Positions 900 to 20,815 are shown, counted from the stretch's first letter. The stretch is DNA of 24,000 nucleotides from an uncultured Candidatus Bathyarchaeia archaeon (GCA_964638535.1 CAZWYW010000003.1:30229-54228); one strand, 5' to 3'. Program-made: numbers and translations. The notes: generated by a model from the sequence alone, not told the origin.

Positions 900-1502
900 A
901 TGTTTAGCTGGCCGAAAAAGACTTATAGCTTGGCTCTCCGGCACCTGGGGTGTCATAAGTTGGCGGCAGAGCCCTGGCAGAGGGCCGAGGTGCCCGGGAC
1001 AGTCAAGGCCACAGTCGTGAAGAAGCCGGAGGTCGTGGCGGCCCTCCTGAAGAGGGCCAAGAGGCCTATCATAATTGTGGGCCACGAGGCTGCTGAGTTC
1101 GAGCTTTCCAACGGCACGACGCTCCTCGACATGTTGGCCGAGCTGGCGAAGAAAACGGGCGTCCCCGTGGTCGCCACGGCCCACGTGGGTCCCATGTTGG
1201 TTGAGAGGGGTGTCCAGCCAGCGGCCATCATGTCCGCGCTCGATATAGGGCAGAGGTTAGCCGACCCGGGGTGGCAGGGCCTAGATGGCCAGGGTCAGTA
1301 TGACCTAGTGCTGATAGCCGGCCTGCCCTACTACATGGAGTGGGTTCTCACGGCCAACCTCAAGGATTTCGCGTCGCATCTCAAGGTGATCAGCCTGGAC
1401 CCGTATTACCAGCCGCACGCCACTTGGTCTTTCCCGAACACGAGGCCAGAAGACCATGAGAAAAACCTTAAGGCCCTCATAGAGGCCGTGGGCGGGAGGT
1501 GA
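900..1502 (+). CDS. cdhB: Acetyl-CoA decarbonylase/synthase epsilon subunit
   Basis: The protein is 200 aa. PWQRAEV...VKKPEVVAALLKRAKRPIIIVGHEA matches the conserved CdhB N-terminal pattern (PW...A..V.P......KRP.L.VG). Position between cdhA and cdhC supports the call. The start could instead be TTG at 960. Confidence 0.8.
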   Translation: MFSWPKKTYSLALRHLGCHKLAAEPWQRAEVPGTVKATVVKKPEVVAALLKRAKRPIIIVGHEAAEFELSNGTTLLDMLAELAKKTGVPVVATAHVGPMLVERGVQPAAIMSALDIGQRLADPGWQGLDGQGQYDLVLIAGLPYYMEWVLTANLKDFASHLKVISLDPYYQPHATWSFPNTRPEDHEKNLKALIEAVGGR

Positions 1503-1506
1503 TGGG

Positions 1507-2916
1507 ATGCCGTCCGGTATGTTCGCTGATATCCCTGTGGACGTGGGCGTGGTCTACGAGGGCGAGCGCATAAGGCGAAAGCAGATGTACGTTGAGTTCG
1601 GCGGCCCTAAGGTACCTTACAAATTCGAGCTCGTAAGGGCCCGTAAGATGGAGGAGGTCGAAGACGGGAAGATAACCATCATAGGCCCCGACATAAAGGA
1701 CCTCGAGGAAGGCGGTAGCTACCCCCTCGGCATCTTGGTTGAGGTAGCGGGCAAGGAGGTAGAGGAAGAGCTCGAGGGCGTCATAGAGCGCCGTATTCAC
1801 GAGTTCTGCAACTACATCGAGGGCTTCATGCATCTCAACCAGCGCTACGACATCTGGCTCCGCTTGAGCAAGAAGTCCTTCCAGAAGGGCTTGAACAGCT
1901 TCGAGTACATCGGTAAGGTCCTCATAAGGCTGTTCAAGAGCGAGATGCCCTTCATAGAGAAGATCCAGGTCACCTTCATCACGGACCCGGAGAAGGTCAA
2001 GGAGATGTATGAGGAGGCCCTAAGGGTCTACGAGGCCCGTGATGCCCGCGCCAGGGGCCTGAAGGACGAGGAGGTTGATACCTTCTACGGCTGCACGCTC
2101 TGCCAGAGCTTCGCCCCCACGCATGTATGCGTGATCACGGCCCAGCGCTACTCCAACTGCGGCGCTATAAGCTGGTTCGACGCCCGCGCGGCCGCTAGGG
2201 TAGACCCGAAGGGGCCCATCTTCCCCATACCCAAGGGCAAGTGCCTTGACCCGGTGAAGGGCGAGTACGAGGGCGTGAACAAGGTCGTGAAGGAGAAATC
2301 GCTGGGCGCAATAGAGCGCGTCTGGCTGTATACGGCCTTCGGCTACCCGCACACCTCCTGTGGCTGCTTCGAGGCCGCTGCCTTCTACATGCCGGAGGTA
2401 GATGGCTTCGGCATAGTCCACAGGGGCTTCAGGGGCGAGACGCCTAACGGCCTGACCTTCGTGGCTATAGCTGACGCCACGGCCGGCGGGAGGCAGGTAG
2501 ATGGCTTTCACGGCATCTCCTTCGAGTACATGAGGTCCCCGAAGTTCCTCCAGGCCGATGGCGGCTGGCACCGTGTGGTCTGGGCGCCCAAGGAGGTGCT
2601 AGAGCGCGTCTGGGACTTCATACCCGAGGACGTGAGGGACAGGATTGCCACGGAGGAAGACGTGAGCAACATGGAGGAGCTGAAGAAGTTCCTCATAGAG
2701 AAAGGACACCCGATAGTGGAGCGTTGGAAGGAGAAGGGCCTGCTGGTCGAGGAGAAGCCTGAGGAGGCCAAGCCCGAGGAGGCCGTGGAGCTGGCGCCCG
2801 GAGCCGTGCCAGCTGTGGCGGGCCTGCCAGCCCTGGGAGGCGTGAGGATAACGCTCGAGGACGCGGCCGTCTTCATCCGCCGGTTGATAATCAAGGCCCC
2901 CGAGAAGAGGAGGTAA
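1507..2916 (+). CDS. cdhC: Acetyl-CoA decarbonylase/synthase beta subunit (acetyl-CoA synthase, A-cluster subunit)
   Basis: The protein is 469 aa. It carries CTLCQSFAPTHVCVIT and HTSCGCFE (the Cys-Gly-Cys A-cluster motif). GGAGGTGAT precedes the ATG. The C-terminus is a Glu/Pro/Ala-rich linker followed by the ITLEDAAVFIRRLIIK tail. Confidence 0.92.
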   Translation: MPSGMFADIPVDVGVVYEGERIRRKQMYVEFGGPKVPYKFELVRARKMEEVEDGKITIIGPDIKDLEEGGSYPLGILVEVAGKEVEEELEGVIERRIHEFCNYIEGFMHLNQRYDIWLRLSKKSFQKGLNSFEYIGKVLIRLFKSEMPFIEKIQVTFITDPEKVKEMYEEALRVYEARDARARGLKDEEVDTFYGCTLCQSFAPTHVCVITAQRYSNCGAISWFDARAAARVDPKGPIFPIPKGKCLDPVKGEYEGVNKVVKEKSLGAIERVWLYTAFGYPHTSCGCFEAAAFYMPEVDGFGIVHRGFRGETPNGLTFVAIADATAGGRQVDGFHGISFEYMRSPKFLQADGGWHRVVWAPKEVLERVWDFIPEDVRDRIATEEDVSNMEELKKFLIEKGHPIVERWKEKGLLVEEKPEEAKPEEAVELAPGAVPAVAGLPALGGVRITLEDAAVFIRRLIIKAPEKRR

Positions 2917-2922
2917 TGGCAG

Positions 2923-3075
2923 ATGGGCGAGAAGAGCGGGTCCGAGGGCAAGGGCGTGGTCCTCCAGGCCTCCGAGCTGGCCAAGCTCTTGGCCAACTTC
3001 GGGGCCATAGAGTTTGAGGACGTGGTGATAAAAGCTAAGAAGCTCATCATAAAGCCCGTGAAGAAGGAGGGGTAA
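2923..3075 (+). CDS. 50-aa micro-ORF, a paralogous copy of the CdhD N-terminal module (MGEKSGSEGKGVVLQASELAKLLANFGAIEFEDVVIKAKKLIIKPVKKEG)
   Basis: It is absent from the ORF track, presumably because it is short. GGAGG at 2909-2913 lies about 9 nt upstream of the ATG. It exactly fills the cdhC-cdhD gap (stop 3073-3075, cdhD ATG at 3080). Bases 2983-3045 are 50/63 identical to cdhD 3158-3220 in the same reading frame. Confidence 0.6.
   Translation: MGEKSGSEGKGVVLQASELAKLLANFGAIEFEDVVIKAKKLIIKPVKKEG
2983..3045 (+). repeat. Copy 1 of a 63-nt in-frame direct repeat (offset 175 nt)
   Basis: The copy aagctcttggccaa...atagag...gaggacgtgg...gctaagaagct was aligned by eye to 3158-3220. 50 of 63 positions are identical, with no indels. 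Confidence 0.85.
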
Positions 3076-3079
3076 GGCT

Positions 3080-4330
3080 ATGCCGGAAGAAAAACGCAAG
3101 CCTGAGGAAGGGGAGAGCGTAGAAGGCTTCCTAGCCAGCTTCCTGCCCGACCTCCTGAAGCTCTTGGCCAAGTACGAGGAGATAGAGCTGGAGGACGTGG
3201 AGCTCCACGCTAAGAAGCTGGCCTTTGAACTCCTGCCGGTCATCCCTGCTGCGCCTCCAGTCCCAGCGGCCCCGCCGGTCGCCAAGCCGACTGAGCTGTT
3301 GAGGGAGGGCTTCGAGCCACCCGTGATGACTTACCCCGGCAGGGTAGAAGAGGTCAAGATAGGGGCCACGCGCTCCGAGGGCGGCAGCAGGGGCAAGACG
3401 TACGTGATAGGCGGCGAGATGAACCCACCTTACTACATCTTCGAGAGGCCCCCGCCTCACAGGCCCATAATATCCATGGACGTCTTCGACACCAAGGTGC
3501 CGCTGCCGAGGGCCGTTAAGATGCACATAAAGGACGTGATAGACGATCCAGGCGAGTGGGCCAAGCGGAACGTGGAGAAGTTCGGCGCCGACATGATAGT
3601 GGTCCACCTGCTGAGCATGGACCCGCTCATAGAAGACAAGGCGCCTAAAGACGCCCTGAAGACGATCGAGGAAGTCCTCCAGGCCGTGGACGTGCCGGTG
3701 GTGGTGGGCGGCTGTGGCGACCCAGAGAAGGACGCGGAAGCCTTCAAGATCGCCTCCGATATGTTCTCCGGCGAGAGGCTGATAATGAGCTCCGTCACGC
3801 TCGACATGGCTGATAAAGGCGTCTTAGATGAAACGGCCAAGGCCATAGCCCAGCACGGGCACATAGCCCTCGCCTTCACGCCCATAGACCTCAACTTGGC
3901 CAGGGAGCTGAACAGGAAGCTCTACGGCCACGTGGCCAGGGACAGCATAATTATGGACCTGACCTCGGCTGCCCTCGGCTACGGCAGCGAGTACTCCTAC
4001 ACCATCATGGAGCGCGCCCGCTTGGCTGCTCTCATGGGCGATAAGGAACTCCAGCACCCGATCATGGCTTGCTCGGCCAACACCTGGGCTGCCCGTGAGG
4101 CCTGGATCAAGGAGGCGGAGATAGGCGAGATCTGGGGTCCGAGGGAGCTGAGGGGGCCGATGTACGAGACGGTAGCGGCCCTCGTCTATCTCCTAGCCGG
4201 CGCGGACTGGCTGATGGTGGAGCATCCAGCCACCACGAGGACTCTGAAGGAGTTCATAGATATCCTCATGAAGAAGGGTGCCGCCAAGCCAGAGACCATA
4301 GCTGGCTGGGTGAGCGCGAAGCTGGGGTGA
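3080..4330 (+). CDS. cdhD: Acetyl-CoA decarbonylase/synthase delta subunit (corrinoid/Fe-S protein small subunit)
   Basis: The protein is 416 aa. SEGGSRGKTYVIGGE, DVFD, PGEWAKRNVEKFGADMIVVHL, LQAVDVPVVVGG and IMDLTSAALGYG closely match remembered Methanosarcina CdhD. AGGAGG lies 9 nt upstream of the ATG. Confidence 0.92.
   Translation: MPEEKRKPEEGESVEGFLASFLPDLLKLLAKYEEIELEDVELHAKKLAFELLPVIPAAPPVPAAPPVAKPTELLREGFEPPVMTYPGRVEEVKIGATRSEGGSRGKTYVIGGEMNPPYYIFERPPPHRPIISMDVFDTKVPLPRAVKMHIKDVIDDPGEWAKRNVEKFGADMIVVHLLSMDPLIEDKAPKDALKTIEEVLQAVDVPVVVGGCGDPEKDAEAFKIASDMFSGERLIMSSVTLDMADKGVLDETAKAIAQHGHIALAFTPIDLNLARELNRKLYGHVARDSIIMDLTSAALGYGSEYSYTIMERARLAALMGDKELQHPIMACSANTWAAREAWIKEAEIGEIWGPRELRGPMYETVAALVYLLAGADWLMVEHPATTRTLKEFIDILMKKGAAKPETIAGWVSAKLG
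3158..3220 (+). repeat. Copy 2 of the 63-nt in-frame direct repeat, within the cdhD 5' region
   Basis: See 2983-3045. It encodes KLLAKYEEIELEDVELHAKKL, against KLLANFGAIEFEDVVIKAKKL in the micro-ORF. Confidence 0.85.
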
Positions 4331-4336
4331 GAGGGT

Positions 4337-5794
4337 ATGTCGGGCAGCGGCGCTAAGGAACTCAGCCCAATAGAGATATACAAGTACCTGCCTAAGACGA
4401 ACTGCGGGAAGTGCGGCGAGAAGACCTGCATGGCCTTCGCCACCAAGCTCGCTAACAGGGAGGCCAGGCTGGAGGAGTGCCCCGAGCTGCTGAAGCCCGA
4501 GTACAAGGAGGCGTACGAGAAGCTCTGGGAGATGCTCAGGCCGCCGGTGCGCGAGGTAGTCTTCGGCTCAGGCGAGAGGGTAGCCAAGATAGGCGGCAAG
4601 TACGTGATGTACAGGCACGAGCTCACCTACCACAACCCAACCGTGATAGCCATAGAAGTGGACGACACCATGGAATTGAGCGAGATAGAAGAGCGCATCA
4701 AGCGCCTGGAGGAGCTCTCGTACATTTACATCGGGCGCGAGCTGAAGCTGGATGCCGTGGCCGTGAGGTGTGTCTCGGGTGATGCCGAGCGCTTCAAGGC
4801 AGCCGTGGAAGCCGTGGCCAAGCTGACGGACATGCCCTTGGTTCTCTGCTGCCTAGACCCGGAGATCATGGAGAACGCCTTAGTGACCGTGTACGAGCGC
4901 AGGCCCCTCCTCTACGCGGCCACCAAGGACAACTGGCGTGAGATGGCAGAGCTGGCCACGGGTTACAAGTGCCCATTAGCTGTCTTCGCGCCCGGGGATA
5001 TAGCGCTCCTCAGGTCCCTCGTGAAGACCTTGCGGGCTTACGGCGTGGAAGACCTGGCCTTAGACCCCGGCACCTTCCCGGGCGAGGGCTTCTCGGACAC
5101 ACTGAACAACTTCGTGATGATACGCCGCGCCGCCTGTAAGATGGGTGATGACCTGTTGGGCTACCCGCTCATAGGCGTGCCAGCCGTGGCCTGGTTGAGC
5201 GAGGGCGGGAAGGAGAAATCCAAGGAGGAAGAGGAAGCCGAGAAGGTCTTGAAGGCCTGGCGCGAGGCTTGTATGGCCGTCATGCTCATCACTCGCTTCG
5301 CCGACCTGCTCATCATGCACAGCTTAGAGGGCTGGGTCCAGCTGCCTATCATGATCTGGCGCGAGAACATCTACACCGATCCGCGCAAGCCCGTGGCTGT
5401 GGAGCCCGGCCTGAAGGCCTTCGGCACGCCGGATGAGATGACGCCCGTGCTCGTCACGACCAACTACGCCCTGACCTACTTCACGGTGGAGAACGACATT
5501 AAATCCGCAAAGATAGATTGCTACCTATTAGTGGTGGATACTGAGGGCCTAAGCGTCCAGAGCGCGGTGGCAGGCCGTAAGCTCACGGCTGAGCTAGTGG
5601 CGGACGCGCTGAAGGAATCCGGCGTGGAGGAGAAAGTGAAGCACCGTTACCTCATCATACCCGGCCTGGCCGCCCGCCTGAGCGGCGAGATAGAAGAGCT
5701 CACGGGCTGGAAGGTGCTCGTGGGGCCACAGGATTCCTCTGCCATACCGAAGTTCTTATCGGAGAAGTGGCCGCCTAAGGAACAGGAAGAGTGA
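4337..5794 (+). CDS. cdhE: Acetyl-CoA decarbonylase/synthase gamma subunit (corrinoid/Fe-S protein large subunit)
   Basis: The protein is 485 aa. The N-terminal Cys cluster KTNCGKCGEKTCMAFATKLA...EEC is the CdhE/AcsC [4Fe-4S] motif. It is the last gene of the cdh cluster. Confidence 0.9.
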   Translation: MSGSGAKELSPIEIYKYLPKTNCGKCGEKTCMAFATKLANREARLEECPELLKPEYKEAYEKLWEMLRPPVREVVFGSGERVAKIGGKYVMYRHELTYHNPTVIAIEVDDTMELSEIEERIKRLEELSYIYIGRELKLDAVAVRCVSGDAERFKAAVEAVAKLTDMPLVLCCLDPEIMENALVTVYERRPLLYAATKDNWREMAELATGYKCPLAVFAPGDIALLRSLVKTLRAYGVEDLALDPGTFPGEGFSDTLNNFVMIRRAACKMGDDLLGYPLIGVPAVAWLSEGGKEKSKEEEEAEKVLKAWREACMAVMLITRFADLLIMHSLEGWVQLPIMIWRENIYTDPRKPVAVEPGLKAFGTPDEMTPVLVTTNYALTYFTVENDIKSAKIDCYLLVVDTEGLSVQSAVAGRKLTAELVADALKESGVEEKVKHRYLIIPGLAARLSGEIEELTGWKVLVGPQDSSAIPKFLSEKWPPKEQEE

Positions 5795-5802: not shown

Positions 5803-6564
5803 CTACTGTATCAACCTAGTCTTTTCTCTAACCACGATCTCCCAGGGCTGCCTGAGTTCTGCTTTCTCCAATAGCCTTACGTCTGAGAACACTTCTCCTG
5901 GCTTCCCCTCGGCCTCTACGCGCCCGCCCATCAATACGTAAACGTAATCGGCTATCCCGTACGCGAAATCCACGTCGTGTGTGGCTATCACGAAGGTCCG
6001 GCCGGAGCGCACGCCTTCGGCCATCAGCTCCTTGAGGAAAGCCACGTAACGAGGGCTGAGGAAGGCCGTGGGCTCGTCCACGAGGAAGACCTCGGGCTCG
6101 TAGACCAAAACAGTGGCTAAGGCAGCTTTCTTCTTCTCCCCGTAGCTCAGCCTGTAAGGCGGCTTGGTCAGTAAGCCCTCTATGCCGAGCTCGGCAGCTA
6201 CCTCGGTCACCTTAGCGCGTACCTCCTCCTCGGGCAGCCCCAATTGCCTGAGGGCGAAGGCTATGTCATCGAACACCGTAGGACAGAAAAGCTGGTCATC
6301 TGGGTCTTGGAAGACGAGGCCCACGTGCCTCCTGAGCTCCGGCCCCAGCTCGCGGATATCGCGGCCCCTGAAGGCCACCTGGCCCTCCTGGGGCTCCAGC
6401 AGGCCTGCTATGACGAGCAAGAGGGTCGTCTTGCCGGCGCCGTTCGGGCCTAAGAGGGCCGTTACCTCGCCCTCTAATATGGCGCAGTCCACGCCTCTGA
6501 GGGCCACCGTGCCGTCGGGGTATCTGAACCACACATTAGAGCACGTGATGACCGCGCCGCCCAT
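5803..6564 (-). CDS. cbiO: ECF-type Ni/Co transporter ATPase component (CbiO/NikO)
   Basis: The protein is 253 aa. It has Walker A GPNGAGKTT, signature-like LSYGEKKK, Walker B FLVDEPTAFL and H-loop ATHD. It is the last gene of the cbiM-N-Q-O order. Confidence 0.88.
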   Translation of the reverse strand: MGGAVITCSNVWFRYPDGTVALRGVDCAILEGEVTALLGPNGAGKTTLLLVIAGLLEPQEGQVAFRGRDIRELGPELRRHVGLVFQDPDDQLFCPTVFDDIAFALRQLGLPEEEVRAKVTEVAAELGIEGLLTKPPYRLSYGEKKKAALATVLVYEPEVFLVDEPTAFLSPRYVAFLKELMAEGVRSGRTFVIATHDVDFAYGIADYVYVLMGGRVEAEGKPGEVFSDVRLLEKAELRQPWEIVVREKTRLIQ

Positions 6565-6568
6565 CGCG

Positions 6569-7387
6569 TCACACCACCTCCAGGATGAAGAGCGCGATAT
6601 AACCCACGGCCGCTAGGAGCCAGATCAGGTCGCGGACGCCCAACCTAAAACACCCCCTCGGATCCGAGATGTTGGCCGGGCTGCCGAACGGGCACCTAGC
6701 CCTCATGGCGAGCCCTACCTTCCAAGCCCTGTTAAAGGCCCTGAGCAAGAGGTCGCCACAGCAGCTGGCCAGGACGAGCCAGGAGGAGCTTATCCTCGGC
6801 TTCCTCAGCAGCCTGGCCTCCCTGGCCGCGAGGAGGCGCTGGGCCTCGCGTATGGAGAGCGGCACGTACCTGGCCGTGAGGAAGGCCATGTTAGGTATAG
6901 TGCCCGTGGGGTCTACGGCGTGGAGGCCTCTGATGAGCGTGGTCAAGCCCGCGTAAGCCGTCCAGGCCACACCAATCGATATGGCGTTCAGGCACCTCAA
7001 GACGAACGCGGCTGCCTTCAGGGTGCCTTCCCGCGTGGCCACCAGGCGTAGCGGGCCGAGCTGGATGGCGTAAGTGACGGCACCGGGGGTTATGAAGGGA
7101 AGTGGCAGCGCTATGATGGTCAAGAAGGGCAGGATAAGGCCTACTAACTTCAGGAAATTGCCTAGCTCGCGGCTGGCCACTGCTAAGACGAGCGCTAGGG
7201 CGAAGGGCAGGAAGGAGCAAGCGCGGAGCGGGATGGGGCTGCTGAAGGCTGCCGGGGAGACAAAAAGGACTAGGAGGGCGAGGGAGGTGAAGGGCGCTAT
7301 CCTCGGTGACCTCTCCTTTGCTAGCCTATCTAGGACGTGGCCAACAGCGTCCAAGTAGCGCATTAACAGACCGCGCCGCCAGAGCAT
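6569..7387 (-). CDS. cbiQ: ECF transporter transmembrane (T) component (CbiQ/NikQ)
   Basis: It is a 272-aa polytopic hydrophobic protein between the small N-type component and the ATPase. The start could instead be the internal ATG at 7363. Confidence 0.75.
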   Translation of the reverse strand: MLWRRGLLMRYLDAVGHVLDRLAKERSPRIAPFTSLALLVLFVSPAAFSSPIPLRACSFLPFALALVLAVASRELGNFLKLVGLILPFLTIIALPLPFITPGAVTYAIQLGPLRLVATREGTLKAAAFVLRCLNAISIGVAWTAYAGLTTLIRGLHAVDPTGTIPNMAFLTARYVPLSIREAQRLLAAREARLLRKPRISSSWLVLASCCGDLLLRAFNRAWKVGLAMRARCPFGSPANISDPRGCFRLGVRDLIWLLAAVGYIALFILEVV

Positions 7388-7391
7388 CGCT

Positions 7392-7712
7392 TTACCCCTG
7401 GCCCTTGGCTAAGAGCGCCATAAGCCCCAGCCCGAGCGCGAGTATGATGGCCACACCCACGATGCCCGAGATTATGTAGCCCACCGATAAGCCAGCCCAG
7501 TCCTCGGGGAGGCCGGGCACAGTGTAATCCGGCAGCAGGCCGGACCAAATGCCCGATTCCTCTAAGCCCCGCTTCTCGGCGGCCACGTCTAAGGGCTCGT
7601 GGTAGCCCACTAGCTCGGCCCCTATGACGCCGAACAGCGGGCTTATGATGAGCAACACGGCTATGACGGCCAGCGCCCTCTTGTGCTTGGCCAGGAAGCC
7701 CTCCAGGGCCAA
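7392..7712 (-). CDS. Small membrane component of the Ni/Co ECF transporter (CbiN/NikN-like, PDGLE-domain-like)
   Basis: The protein is 106 aa with N- and C-terminal TM helices flanking HEPLDVAAEK...PDYTVPG, which resembles the PDGLE domain. The TTG start lies 2 nt after the cbiM stop. Confidence 0.65.
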   Translation of the reverse strand: MALEGFLAKHKRALAVIAVLLIISPLFGVIGAELVGYHEPLDVAAEKRGLEESGIWSGLLPDYTVPGLPEDWAGLSVGYIISGIVGVAIILALGLGLMALLAKGQG

Positions 7713-7714
7713 AT

Positions 7715-8371
7715 TCAGCTCACCCCTGGTAACCTCACGCTCATGACAAGCGATGGCGCCCTCCTGGCGATGTAATCCACCACTAGGGCCGTTATGATGC
7801 CCTCTATCACGCCTAGGCCGAAGTGCCAGAGGCCCATGACCGGCACGGTTATGGCTATCCCGAAGGGGAAAGCAGGCGAATAGCCTATCTCTAGGCCACA
7901 GGCCACGCCAGCCAACGTTATGCCCAGCCAGCCGCCTAGGAAAGCGCCCGCTAACCTGTAGGGCCTCTCAGGACCACCGAGCTTCACGAAGGCCATGAAG
8001 AACGCGTAGCCCACCAACACGTCTATGATGCCCATGTTGAGGACGTTGGCCCCGAGGGCCGTTATGCCGCCATCGCCGAAGACCAAGCACTGTATGAGCA
8101 AGACGACCAGCAAGACTAACTCGCCTAGCCAGGGGCCGAGGAGGATGCCGGCCAAGGCGCCGCCTACCATGTGGAGGCTAGTGCCGCCGGGCAGGGGCCA
8201 GTTCAGCATCTGGGCCGCGAAGATGCCAGCTGCCAGCAGGGAGGTCAGCGTGATGGTCTCGGGACCTAGGGCTCCCCTGGCCTTATAGACCGCGTAGGCC
8301 GTGAAGGCGATGGTTAGGGCATAGCAGATGCCAGCCGTCAGCGGATCCAAGAAGCCATCCGGTATGTGCAT
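7715..8371 (-). CDS. cbiM: Ni/Co ECF transporter substrate-capture (S) component (CbiM/NikM)
   Basis: It is multi-TM. I place the start at the ATG giving N-terminal MHIPDGFLD, because the CbiM/NikM family uses the Met1-His2 N-terminus to bind metal. The track ORF starts 7 codons earlier, at 8392. Confidence 0.85.
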   Translation of the reverse strand: MHIPDGFLDPLTAGICYALTIAFTAYAVYKARGALGPETITLTSLLAAGIFAAQMLNWPLPGGTSLHMVGGALAGILLGPWLGELVLLVVLLIQCLVFGDGGITALGANVLNMGIIDVLVGYAFFMAFVKLGGPERPYRLAGAFLGGWLGITLAGVACGLEIGYSPAFPFGIAITVPVMGLWHFGLGVIEGIITALVVDYIARRAPSLVMSVRLPGVS

Positions 8372-8430
8372 ACTTTCCCCACCGGCCGTCATACCAGGCC
8401 AGGGTATTTAAGTATTACATTTCCCGGAGA

Positions 8431-12165: not shown

Positions 12166-12813
12166 CTATGGGATGCCCAGAGCCCGCCTATAATAACCGC
12201 TGTAGAGCACCACGGCTGGGTTATGGCCCGTCACCCTATCCTTGGCTATTAAGGTCACGACGGGGGCCTTGGAATACCTGTAGAAGAGCGAGTCGTGACC
12301 CACGCAGAGGCCTACGGCCAAATTCAGCTCGGTTCCCAGGGCATTTAAGATAAGAGCCTGGCCCACGGGATTACAGATGGCCTCAAAAGGCCTATCCTTA
12401 TTTACCCAACATTCCCTCGGCACGCCTACCTCGGATTTTGGAATAGCCCCGACCTTACAGCAGACGGAGAAGGCCTCAAAGCCCTCTTTCTCCAAATAAC
12501 GCGATATGATTTTTGCTTCTTCCCTGAGGCCTATGCAGAACGCTATGCCTATCCGCTTGACGCCCAGCTTCTTGGCCATCTCCGCGACCTCGACCAGCCT
12601 GGGCCACCGCATGTAGCCTTCTCCCTCGACCTCACTGGAGGCTAAGGCCATCCTGCGGACCTCTCCGTCCTCGACGTATATCCTCCTGGCCTCCTCCAAC
12701 ACGCCCGTCATGTCCCTCGTAGGGCAGCCGGGCGGCAGCTTACTTAGCTCGCCCAGGTAGCTGGCGTAAGAACGGCAGTAAGCACATCTGGCGGTTTTCA
12801 CGGCGGTCACCAC
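12166..12813 (-). CDS. DUF1847 family Cys-rich metal-binding protein
   Basis: The protein is 215 aa. IGIAFCIGL, VCCKVG, AICNPVGQA, LAVGLCVGHD and VTLIAKDRVTGHNP match the DUF1847 pattern. The start is GTG. It lies 80 nt upstream of fwdA on the same strand. Confidence 0.65.
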   Translation of the reverse strand: MVTAVKTARCAYCRSYASYLGELSKLPPGCPTRDMTGVLEEARRIYVEDGEVRRMALASSEVEGEGYMRWPRLVEVAEMAKKLGVKRIGIAFCIGLREEAKIISRYLEKEGFEAFSVCCKVGAIPKSEVGVPRECWVNKDRPFEAICNPVGQALILNALGTELNLAVGLCVGHDSLFYRYSKAPVVTLIAKDRVTGHNPAVVLYSGYYRRALGIP

Positions 12814-18859: not shown

Positions 18860-20815
18860 TTGTGCACCTTAATCACGCTCTACCGGTCGCTCGAGGGCTA
18901 CCACGTGGTCGCGATGTTCAACCGTTACGCTCCCCGCCGCTCACAGGTGGAGGCGCCCCCGAGGCTCGTTAAAGGGCGCCGCTACTTGATCTGTTGCCCG
19001 GTAGATGTGGCCTCGGGCGGGACGTGGGTGGGCTTCAACGAGGCTGGCCTCTTCGCGGCCGTCACGGACCAACATAGCGGCCCCGTGATAAAGCCCAGGA
19101 GGAGCAGAGGGCTCCTCTTGCTCGATGTACTCGGGGGCTTCAGCGATAGCCGTGAGGCAGCCGATTACGTAAGGCACGAGGTGAGGAAGGGCTACATCAC
19201 GGGTAATTTCGTGGTGGCGGACGAAGAAGCCATGTTCCACGTCATCTACGATGGCCAAGTGCACGTGCGCGAGTTAGGGCCGGGCGCCCATGTCTTCACT
19301 AACCTCACCATGACGCCTAACGTGGACCTCTCGGACGAGCTCATTAAGGCGATACACGAGAGGGCCGAGGCGCGCAGGACAAGGGCTGTGAAGCTGCTGA
19401 GCGGCTGGGAGCCCTCGAGCCTGGCCGAGGCCCTGGAGAAGCTAAAGACCATAGCAGCCGACCACGGGGACTCGCCCGGGCGCAAATCCATCTGCTACCA
19501 CGATTCCGGCGATTGGAAGATGACTTCCTCTACCATCTTGGCCGTCTCGCACGATTTCGAGCGGTCTAAGGTGCTCTATTGCCCCGGCAATCCCTGTTCC
19601 TCCGCCTTCGTGGATTACTCGCACGTCCTGAGCGCTGGGCCAGGCGAGGTAAGCAGGAAATCAGATAGGCTGGCTGGAAGGAGGATAGCGCTCTGTGTGA
19701 CGGGTAGCTCGGCGGCTACAGAGGCGCCCAAGCTGGCCAGGGAGCTAAGGAGGCATGGGGCCGAGGTAATCTGCTACATGACGCCCGAGGCCGCCAGGCT
19801 AATAATATCGCCGGAGGTCATGAGGTGGGCTACCGGCAGGCCCGTGGTGTTAGAGCTCACGGGCGCGGCCGAACACATAGCTGATTACGATTTAGTGGTG
19901 GTCTACCCGGCCACCTTCAACACCATATGCAAGATAGCAGCCGGTATAGCGGATAACGCTGTGGCTTCCCTCTGCGCGGCTACCCCGCCTGATAAGCTTG
20001 TGCTGGCGCCAGCCATGAACCTCAAGCTCTACGGCAGCCCGATACTAAGGGAGGCCCTGAATAAGCTGGCCACGTTAGGCGTGAAGATAGCCGAGCCGAG
20101 GGTGGAGGAGGGCGCGGCCAAGGTGGCCGAGAAAGAAGCCGTGGTGGACTTGGCCATCAGGACCCTCTCCACCAGCAGGCTCAAGGGGCGCGGCGTGCTC
20201 GTGCTCGCTGGCCCGACCCGGTACGACCTAGATGCCGTCCGCTATATATCAAATAAGTCCAGCGGCGCCTTAGGCTTCTGGTTGGCCAAGGAGGCCTTCT
20301 GGAGGGGCTGCCGCGTCAAGGTGGTCTTCGGGCCCGGCACCGTCCGTTTCCCACGCCACATACCGGTCATCAAGGCTTACACGGTAGAGGACATGCTGAA
20401 CGCTGCCCTGGGGGAGTTCAGGAGCGGTGGGTATGATATAGCTATATTCGCAGCTGCTATACTCGATTTCAAGCCCGAGAGAACGCTCGATATGAAGCTG
20501 AAATCGGGCGCCGAGTGGGCCATGAAGCTTGTCCCGACGCCAAAGGTGATAGAAGCCGTGAGGCGTGAGTTCCCCGACCTCTTCGTGGTTGGCTTCAAGC
20601 TAGAGTACAAGGTGTCAGATGAGGAGCTCGTGGCCTCGGCCCGGAAGCTCCTAGAGAAGCTCGACCTAAACGTGGTGGTCGCGAACGACCTCACCCAGAT
20701 AAGAGCCGGCCGGCACAGGGCGCTCCTTGTCACGGCGGATAGCGTTAAGGAGGTAGATGGCCCTAAGAGCTTGCTGGCCAAGGAGATATTCGACCTAGTA
20801 GAGGAGCTCTTCTGA
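18860..20815 (+). CDS. coaBC: Fusion protein: N-terminal NRDE/TANGO2-like (DUF833) domain + phosphopantothenoylcysteine decarboxylase (CoaC) + phosphopantothenate-cysteine ligase (CoaB)
   Basis: This is a 651-aa single ORF. Residues 1-~258 begin M-C (TTG-TGC) and carry FNRYAPR, SGGTWVGFNEAGLFAAVTD, RSRGLLLLD, GNFVVAD and SICYHD...MTSSTIL, parallel to the human TANGO2 landmarks (MC, ANRDE, GGTWLG, SRG, NGFNL, C...GTRT). Residues ~273-440 carry IALCVTGSSAA, PATFNTICKIAAGIADN and PAMN (CoaC flavoprotein). Residues ~445-651 carry LAGPTRYDLDAVRYISNKSSGALG, AAAILDFKP and VVGFKLE (CoaB). Confidence 0.8.
   Translation: MCTLITLYRSLEGYHVVAMFNRYAPRRSQVEAPPRLVKGRRYLICCPVDVASGGTWVGFNEAGLFAAVTDQHSGPVIKPRRSRGLLLLDVLGGFSDSREAADYVRHEVRKGYITGNFVVADEEAMFHVIYDGQVHVRELGPGAHVFTNLTMTPNVDLSDELIKAIHERAEARRTRAVKLLSGWEPSSLAEALEKLKTIAADHGDSPGRKSICYHDSGDWKMTSSTILAVSHDFERSKVLYCPGNPCSSAFVDYSHVLSAGPGEVSRKSDRLAGRRIALCVTGSSAATEAPKLARELRRHGAEVICYMTPEAARLIISPEVMRWATGRPVVLELTGAAEHIADYDLVVVYPATFNTICKIAAGIADNAVASLCAATPPDKLVLAPAMNLKLYGSPILREALNKLATLGVKIAEPRVEEGAAKVAEKEAVVDLAIRTLSTSRLKGRGVLVLAGPTRYDLDAVRYISNKSSGALGFWLAKEAFWRGCRVKVVFGPGTVRFPRHIPVIKAYTVEDMLNAALGEFRSGGYDIAIFAAAILDFKPERTLDMKLKSGAEWAMKLVPTPKVIEAVRREFPDLFVVGFKLEYKVSDEELVASARKLLEKLDLNVVVANDLTQIRAGRHRALLVTADSVKEVDGPKSLLAKEIFDLVEELF

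Follow-up and report, generated by a model that had tools for sequence, protein, structure and literature searches.

An apparently chimeric micro-protein gene between cdhC and cdhD in a hydrothermal clade of Bathyarchaeia

Introduction

How the ~2-MDa ACDS (acetyl-CoA decarbonylase/synthase) complex of archaea joins CODH (carbon monoxide dehydrogenase), ACS (acetyl-CoA synthase) and the corrinoid iron-sulfur protein (CoFeSP) is only now emerging. In M. acetivorans, CoFeSP oligomerizes via a helix in the N-terminal region of CdhD to give hexamers to octamers, and this CdhD N-terminal oligomer is the centre of the complex (Zimmer et al., bioRxiv 2026 preprint, PMC13370988). The same study reported a crosslink between CdhA E15 and CdhC K452 and proposed that the disordered, conserved N-terminus of CdhA and C-terminus of CdhC act as tethers to the CdhD N-terminal region. 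The C-terminal extension of CdhC (~75 aa) was unresolved in the cryo-electron microscopy structure of M. thermophila ACS, and its function was called unknown (Biester et al., PMC11474084; PDB 9c0s/9c0t). Here we describe a 50-codon open reading frame (ORF), the micro-ORF, which lies between cdhC and cdhD in the cdh operon of an uncultured Candidatus Bathyarchaeia archaeon and encodes what we call the micro-protein. The stretch of DNA analysed (GCA_964638535.1, CAZWYW010000003.1:30229-54228) is 24,000 nt long, and is referred to as the window.

In the cdh operons of Methanosarcina, a CooC/AcsF-like accessory gene (ORF4), reportedly described by Maupin-Furlow and Ferry in 1996, stands between cdhC and cdhD. 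The micro-ORF occupies the same place in the operon, but its product is unrelated and is not a nickel-insertion ATPase of the CooC/AcsF type: it has 50 aa, against ~250 aa for the P-loop nucleoside triphosphatase, contains no P-loop and matches no Pfam or NCBIfam family.

A second comparison is with the microProteins of eukaryotes, such as Id and LITTLE ZIPPER, which derive from the interaction domain of a larger protein and join or poison its complexes. The logic is the same, in that an interaction module appears to have been duplicated without the functional body. The eukaryotic examples are regulators of transcription factors, whereas the parents of the micro-protein are subunits of a metabolic enzyme; the micro-protein, moreover, reads as a hybrid of two different parents and is co-transcribed with them. 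A small protein in the cdh operon is mentioned neither in PMC13370988 or PMC11474084 nor in the other literature found. The micro-protein is previously undescribed, a free-standing variant of known ACDS terminal docking modules that occurs only in a small uncultured clade.

Results

The micro-ORF is a protein-coding gene confined to one clade

The cdh genes of the window all lie on the plus strand, in the order cdhA (3′ part)-cdhB-cdhC-micro-ORF-cdhD-cdhE by Pfam assignment (Table 1). The initial annotation held that a 50-codon ORF with its own GGAGG fills the gap between cdhC and cdhD, and this is what we found: the cdhC stop codon is at 2914-2916 and the cdhD ATG at 3080, leaving spacers of 6 nt on the cdhC side of the micro-ORF and 4 nt on the cdhD side. 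The Shine-Dalgarno (SD)-like arrangement of the micro-ORF is also found in relatives, with GGAGG 5-9 nt upstream in most lineages. Within the micro-protein is a 17-residue module that has counterparts near the C-terminus of CdhC (the tail) and near the N-terminus of CdhD (the head).

By its CdhD homologues the window belongs to Bathyarchaeia, with ‘Ca. Bathyarchaeota archaeon ex4484’ and the like as the named matches. Around CdhD relatives at 85, 84, 81 and 70% identity, the DNA has in each case a 47-52-codon ORF at the same place, and wherever CdhD is at least 69% identical to that of the window, the locus carries an ORF of 44-52 codons between cdhC and cdhD. A single-sequence search with the 50-aa peptide matched itself only. 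The family surfaced only via a profile built from the spacer ORFs of CdhD relatives, which retrieved 13 proteins of 45-52 aa and one of 91 aa out of 5.8 billion sequences. An exhaustive HMMER profile pass over 1.84 billion cluster representatives returned no member beyond this family, bar two repeat proteins rejected as spurious summed matches, namely P0134 (3303 aa, a repeat adhesin matched in 17 stretches) and the repeat-rich P0137. Another 11 loci came from a pattern scan of metagenome contigs, and L103 and L104 from two more look-ups; 10 of these 13 loci show the micro-ORF together with cdhC on its upstream side, cdhD on its downstream side or both, and in L094, L103 and L104 one flank only was checked. 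The micro-protein is encoded inside the cdh operon, between cdhC and cdhD and uninterrupted, in the window and in 25 related loci (L001-L008, L011-L014, L091-L101, L103 and L104).

One further locus, L102, holds at 1547-1822 a 91-aa ORF (P0133), the N-terminal part of which looks ParB-like (IPLEKLRVSPYNIRERF). Of the micro-protein only the C-terminal half is present there, its module making up the last 36 aa of P0133. Next comes the start of cdhD, with no cdhC upstream; the contig is 1.9 kb long at 2.9x coverage, and the arrangement could reflect chimeric assembly or a true rearrangement.

The limits of the distribution were drawn from a CdhD profile scan of one genome per GTDB species, which gave 80 loci, all labelled Bathyarchaeia or Bathyarchaeota bar L065 (labelled Limnocylindrales bacterium). 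A cdhC-cdhD gap of 141-164 nt occurred only in loci with CdhD at least 69% identical to that of the window, represented by four species. CdhD was at most 60% identical in the ~75 other loci, and there the gap was -44 to +13 nt in 70 of the 73 measurable cases; the outlying gaps of L037, L049 and L083 are read as artefacts of the gap calculation, and of these only L049 was inspected. None of the ~75 other Bathyarchaeia loci, L049 included, contained a scoring micro-like ORF. Neighbour joining on the CdhD body (from residue 90, with the head left out) groups the window with P0002-P0008 alone, in a clade that sits on a long stem, and the identifiers of the clade samples (ex4484, HyVt, Guaymas-type) mark them as hydrothermal. 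The micro-ORF is confined to this one monophyletic hydrothermal clade of Bathyarchaeia. As for L049 itself, its apparent cdhC-cdhD gap of 413 nt (4572-4986) goes with a broken cdhC frame and a ‘tail’ reading ...GGLKLTASTESQ before the stop, probably through a frameshift or assembly error.

An alignment of 12 family members has ten invariant columns, and ten invariant or near-invariant residues (E30, L31, E32, D33, V34, I36, A38, K39, K40 and P45) fall in the module and the Pro that follows it. Pairwise ratios of nonsynonymous to synonymous divergence (dN/dS, by NG86) were 0.12-0.52 on a 30-codon core, with dS running from ~0.5 to saturation. Together, these ratios and the invariant columns indicate that purifying selection acts on the protein, and the micro-ORF is a genuine protein-coding gene.

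GC-rich DNA yields spurious ORFs and the feature is a tandem repeat, which could speak for a chance ORF or for an assembly artefact due to a collapsed or expanded repeat. Two ORFs on the minus strand, at 2508-3050 (180 aa) and 2599-3285 (228 aa), span the whole feature; they are rich in Ser, Gly and Leu and were treated as non-coding, being typical artefacts of GC-rich DNA. The micro-ORF differs in that diverged sequences in independent assemblies of several samples (JGI, ENA, Logan and NCBI metagenome-assembled genomes) keep its frame, length and residues; this recurrence excludes an assembly artefact, and the likelihood that the micro-ORF is no gene at all is negligible. Fusion of the micro-ORF to cdhD by read-through or frameshifting was also ruled out, as relatives differ in their stop-to-start geometry, which runs from an overlap of 14 nt to a gap of 6 nt.

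The gene could also be a by-product of duplication, kept mainly for coupling the translation of cdhD to that of cdhC, with a peptide that has little or no role in the complex. The geometry of cdhC stop, SD sequence and start is duplicated at the locus, the C-terminal codons of the micro-ORF encode the SD sequence of cdhD, and in the outgroup cdhD is coupled directly to cdhC through an overlap or a gap of a few nucleotides. The amino-acid sequence of such a remnant would drift, yet the micro-protein combines invariant columns and constrained dN/dS values with saturated dS, and its conserved core lies far from both ribosome-binding sites. Because residues at that distance are conserved, we regard a role in coupling alone as improbable.

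The micro-protein combines a CdhD-like head with a CdhC-like tail

The strongest direct trace of duplication is a 63-nt repeat shared by the micro-ORF and cdhD (Table 1), which the initial annotation had reported at 50 of 63 identical bases with no indel and which we reproduced. When the 63-mer was slid along both strands of the window, the background had a mean of 15.7 and a maximum of 32/63, placing the 50/63 match at z = 8.6. The two copies had also been said to share a reading frame. They do share codon phase, each within its own ORF; the absolute frames differ, because the offset of 175 nt is not divisible by 3. The near absence of synonymous differences between the window copies reflects shared codon bias and conserved residues. 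A peptide pattern, defined post hoc, has exactly three matches in the six-frame translation of the 24 kb (at 2848, 3007 and 3182) and none in 200 shuffles; one of the three is the CdhC C-terminus, as had been claimed. The CdhC-tail copy is alike mainly at the peptide level, with 24/51 nt identical to either of the other copies, compared with 35/51 between the micro-ORF and the head.

The initial annotation read the micro-ORF as the CdhD N-terminal module copied in tandem. A true duplicate of the head module is present, but the last ~14 residues and the stop derive from the CdhC tail. The micro-protein tracks the CdhD head through AKKL, taking in the start, the N-terminal stretch and the helix (ELAKLLANF against DLLKLLAKY). 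Past AKKL it tracks the CdhC tail through IIK, a Pro, the basic end and the stop, which falls 23 residues past the motif start exactly as in CdhC; the shared ending of the micro-protein and CdhC is [AI][KR][KR][LIV]xI[KR](A)Px[KR]R followed by the stop codon. Outgroup sequences divide the module in the same way. The helix and first half of the micro-protein fit the outgroup head LLELLAKLQEIELED, and the second half, [RK]AKK[LIV][IV]I[KR], fits YAKKVIIR of the outgroup tail but not EVGDLEIW of the outgroup head.

Profile and nucleotide comparisons agree with this division. A hidden Markov model (HMM) of the micro-protein scored 13-26 bits on CdhD heads, both inside the clade and in outgroups, with matches spanning HMM positions 14-40, whilst its match to CdhC tails was weak, at 13.7 bits on one tail (positions 26-44). 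The tandem units 2845-3003 and 3004-3178 align end to end, including the stop, SD sequence and ATG, with 101 identities (z = 7.6 against shuffles), and the GGAGG-9nt-ATG geometry ahead of cdhD is a duplicate of that at the end of cdhC. Relative to the N-terminal region of CdhD, the first ~40 residues of the micro-protein are paralogous (amphipathic helix plus IELEDV; 50/63 nt; HMM scores of 18-26 bits on CdhD heads), but the micro-protein is free-standing, with no Pro/Ala linker or triosephosphate isomerase (TIM) barrel, a shorter helix, and a second half that is basic and tail-like. Relative to the C-terminal extension of CdhC, the last ~14 residues, the distance to the stop and the SD-9nt-ATG arrangement are alike, but an ACS body is missing, the module is head-like in its first half, and nucleotide similarity is weak (24/51).

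On these alignments, the micro-protein is a head/tail chimera that arose from one tandem duplication of ~160-175 nt covering the 3′ end of cdhC and the 5′ end of cdhD. By the same comparison, the CdhD head supplied the start, the N-terminal stretch, the short amphipathic helix and the acidic half-motif (IE[LF]EDV), and the CdhC tail the basic half-motif (AKKLIIK), the basic end, the stop and the downstream GGAGG-9nt-ATG. The duplication is most simply explained by a single unequal crossover of tail motif with head motif in the ancestor of the clade. Orthologous modules are more alike (47.6 and 52.5 of 69) than paralogous micro-head pairs, which points to one old event without ongoing gene conversion; conversion between the micro-ORF and the cdhD head was ruled out, with identity within genomes (43.4/69) equal to that between genomes (42.3/69). 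That the micro-ORF is a genuine, conserved and chimeric gene, born of tail/head duplication, is in our judgement very probable.

Tail and head modules carry complementary charges

As initially described from the sequence, Pro/Ala/Glu-rich linkers tether the modules of CdhC and CdhD. The CdhC linker of the window corresponds to the ~75-aa extension of PMC11474084, and in the AlphaFold2 model of CdhD the TIM barrel begins at residue 91. The micro-protein has neither linker nor catalytic body, and is in this sense a free-standing derivative and not a terminal extension. Whether the motif is general had been posed as a question. Head and tail modules are family-wide, the NCBIfam cdhD equivalog aligning from CdhD residue 23 and the cdhC models reaching residues 463-467, but the shared ‘LED’ version is specific to the clade. 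The C-terminus of M. thermophila CdhC (PDB 9c0s_E), GGIKLTFKNAKITIDRMIIS, aligns with GGVRITLEDAAVFIRRLIIK.

A comparison of 67 unique tail/head pairs puts hydrophobic residues at positions 2, 4, 7, 9, 11, 14 and 16 of the 17-residue module in both tail and head. Each of three sub-segments of the module shows beta-type (180 degree) periodicity, and the stretch upstream is alpha-amphipathic. The outgroup consensus is basic for the tail (KIILK[DN]AKI.AKKVIIR) and acidic for the head (EIELEDFEMEVGDLEIW); the charges of outgroup Bathyarchaeia are +4.8 for the tail, which is uniformly basic, and -7.4 for the head, which is uniformly acidic. All three modules of the clade are dipoles, with first/second-half charges of -0.6/+2.9 for the tail, -4.1/+0.6 for the head and -3.2/+4.0 for the micro-protein.

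A register score, counted across all registers as opposite-charge minus like-charge pairs, was highest for the antiparallel register i+j=18 in the outgroup (4.32) and in the clade (4.29). Parallel in-register pairing is favourable in the outgroup (3.22) and repulsive in the clade (-1.86). Within register i+j=18, the micro-protein scores +4.9 with itself, +4.3 with the head and +2.6 with the tail, whereas the ancestral head:head (-6) and tail:tail (-2) pairings are repulsive. The top charge anticorrelation links tail position 5 with head position 13 (r = -0.95), and consists of a swap from K:D to E:K; as it reflects one evolutionary event, the swap is suggestive and not statistical. A basic tail and an acidic head with the same hydrophobic pattern suggest that tail and head modules pair in an antiparallel register. 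In the clade, any of the three modules may be able to pair antiparallel with any other, to judge by the charge count.

The CdhA N-terminus has a motif of its own, H[VL][KR][IV]xE[LM]K..[KR][NG]L[ET][LI]SIG[KR]I, which is conserved before the first Cys cluster in loci L015-L087 (cdhA start ~1600-1700) and aligns with the N-terminus of PDB 8riu_A. The CdhA head of the micro-ORF clade (L103:1990-2130) reads HLRVDELKSAALSARGLTISIGRIF and is not obviously recharged like the tail and head.

Table 1. Features of the cdh locus, with positions counted from the first nucleotide of the window
Feature	Position	Strand	Basis or remark
cdhA, 3′ part	window start	+	Pfam
cdhB	900-1502	+	Pfam
cdhC (ACS beta subunit, 469 aa)	1507-2916	+	Pfam CdhC + ACS_CODH_B_C; NCBIfam TIGR00316, NF003379; PDB 9c0s_E alignment, residues 7-466
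CdhC Glu/Pro/Ala-rich flexible linker (residues 414-446)	2746-2844	+	Sequence
CdhC tail module RITLEDAAVFIRRLIIK (17 aa)	2845-2895	+	Motif alignment; M. thermophila CdhC C-terminus
CdhC basic end APEKRR and stop, after tail module	2896-2916	+	
GGAGG SD-like site of micro-ORF, built from last cdhC Arg codons	2909-2913	+	9 nt 5′ of ATG
Micro-ORF (50 aa), MGEKSGSEGKGVVLQASELAKLLANFGAIEFEDVVIKAKKLIIKPVKKEG	2923-3075	+	ATG 2923, TAA 3073-3075
Micro-protein short amphipathic helix (residues 16-23), apparently copied from end of CdhD N-terminal helix	2968-2991	+	AlphaFold2 monomer; hydrophobic moment peak near 100 degrees
63-nt repeat copy 1, in micro-ORF	2983-3045	+	50/63 identical to 3158-3220
Micro-protein module AIEFEDVVIKAKKLIIK, then PVKKEG and stop	3004-3054	+	Acidic head-like first half, basic tail-like second half
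GGAGG SD-like site of cdhD, within last micro-ORF codons	3066-3070	+	9 nt 5′ of ATG
cdhD (CoFeSP small subunit, 416 aa)	3080-4330	+	Pfam CdhD; NCBIfam TIGR00381 match from residue 23
CdhD N-terminal amphipathic helix (residues 14-31)	3119-3172	+	AlphaFold2
63-nt repeat copy 2, in cdhD	3158-3220	+	50/63 identical to 2983-3045
CdhD head module EIELEDVELHAKKLAFE (residues 34-50), then LLPVIP...	3179-3229	+	Motif alignment
CdhD Pro/Ala-rich linker (residues 51-70)	3230-3289	+	Sequence; predicted local distance difference test (pLDDT) <50 at residues 50-64
cdhE (CoFeSP large subunit)	4337-5794	+	Pfam FeS + CdhD

Genomic context

The longest cdhB ORF of the window (ATG 900, 200 aa) differs from the recorded product; in all relatives, gene callers place the start 60 nt further downstream, for a product of 180 aa. 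An adjacent cdhA is present in the window and in L103, whereas in L007 and L008 (CdhD ~70% identical) an adenylosuccinate-lyase-like gene (Lyase_1/ADSL_C) occupies positions 1-1433, 5′ of cdhB, and cdhA lies elsewhere. Tail-to-tail with cdhE, on the minus strand of the window (5803-8392), is an energy-coupling factor (ECF)-type Co/Ni uptake cluster that comprises a CbiO-like ATP-binding cassette ATPase, CbiQ, a PDGLE-domain protein and CbiM. This cluster also adjoins the cdh operon in L001, L003, L004 and L007, a sensible neighbour for a Ni/Co enzyme.

Further along the window, a 651-aa ORF (18860-20815, plus strand) is an unusual fusion of an N-terminal TANGO2 domain to Flavoprotein and DFP domains (CoaBC, phosphopantothenoylcysteine synthetase/decarboxylase). 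A DUF1847 protein (12166-12813, minus strand) has an ordinary context, amid genes for an amidohydrolase, a saccharopine-dehydrogenase-like protein, a radical S-adenosylmethionine protein and an aldehyde:ferredoxin oxidoreductase.

Discussion

Our data are consistent with a model in which the micro-protein is a body-less extra subunit or adaptor of the ACDS hub, a reading that we put forward as plausible and tentative. In this model the CdhC tail and the CdhD head would form a cognate antiparallel docking pair, whose modules would have become self-complementary in the clade. Because the micro-ORF is translationally coupled on both sides, its product would be made at ~1:1 with CdhC and CdhD. The micro-protein could then insert, via its helix and dipolar module, beside CdhD heads and CdhC tails, and would fill or bridge hub positions, thereby setting the number of CoFeSP and ACS units attached. 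The CdhD helix at residues 14-31 may be the counterpart of the coiled-coil helix that forms the hub in M. acetivorans. As an explanation of the whole, joining the chimeric gene to a role at the hub, the proposal falls just short of what we would call probable.

The idea of a docking element had been raised in the initial annotation, and it fits both the hub data of PMC13370988 and the charge complementarity found here. That annotation also proposed that a free-standing copy could cap, compete for or regulate the interface. A competitive cap or decoy of the microProtein type is the main rival to a hub subunit: on binding to CdhD heads or CdhC tails, the free module would obstruct productive docking between the two, so limiting the size of the supercomplex or freeing ACS and CoFeSP. 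An interaction module without a catalytic body is what such a decoy would look like, and the charge pattern of the micro-protein suits the head, the tail and itself. Yet the constitutive, translationally coupled place of the gene between structural genes predicts near-equimolar synthesis and not regulated dosing, and an inhibitor made at 1:1 with its targets would cripple an essential complex. No promoter or regulatory signal of its own came to light for the gene, although no search aimed at one was made. We consider a cap or decoy unlikely; a structural, stoichiometric subunit is at least as well supported by the place in the operon and by translational coupling.

Several observations nevertheless weigh against the hub-subunit model and the evidence that we bring to it. 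The basic C-terminal codons of the micro-ORF double as the ribosome-binding site of cdhD, and this inflates the apparent protein conservation there. AlphaFold2 monomers give the helix only, the module being without regular structure in the micro-protein (pLDDT 71) and in CdhD (residues 32-90, low to moderate pLDDT). The charge-register argument is a crude count, in which the change from K5/D13 to E5/K13 is a single evolutionary event. Lastly, the hub helix of Methanosarcina (CdhD residues 45-68) is not obviously homologous in position to the helix of Bathyarchaeia, and the source for it is a preprint.

The hub-subunit model can be carried one step further. The clade may have rewired the assembly code of ACDS, from a heterotypic pairing of acidic head and basic tail to three self-complementary dipole modules, together with a sixth, body-less subunit that would set the stoichiometry or size of the hub. 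This extension is possible, and we regard it as doubtful. The micro-protein is a natural minimal peptide, comprising a putative hub helix and a hybrid docking module, which is open to synthesis and direct testing; its predicted tryptic peptides are LLANFGAIEFEDVVIK and GVVLQASELAK.

Overall, our work offers a docking-code hypothesis for the ACDS complex, drawn from sequence, in which a basic tail would face an acidic head in antiparallel orientation and one charge swap would be compensatory. The micro-ORF is also a likely case of a micro-protein that originated in a prokaryote through unequal crossover, here between two neighbouring genes at the ends coding for interacting termini. Should the assembly code indeed have been rewired, this hydrothermal clade of Bathyarchaeia would represent a natural experiment, in which CdhC and CdhD are seen to form a specific antiparallel docking pair through their ‘disordered’ termini.

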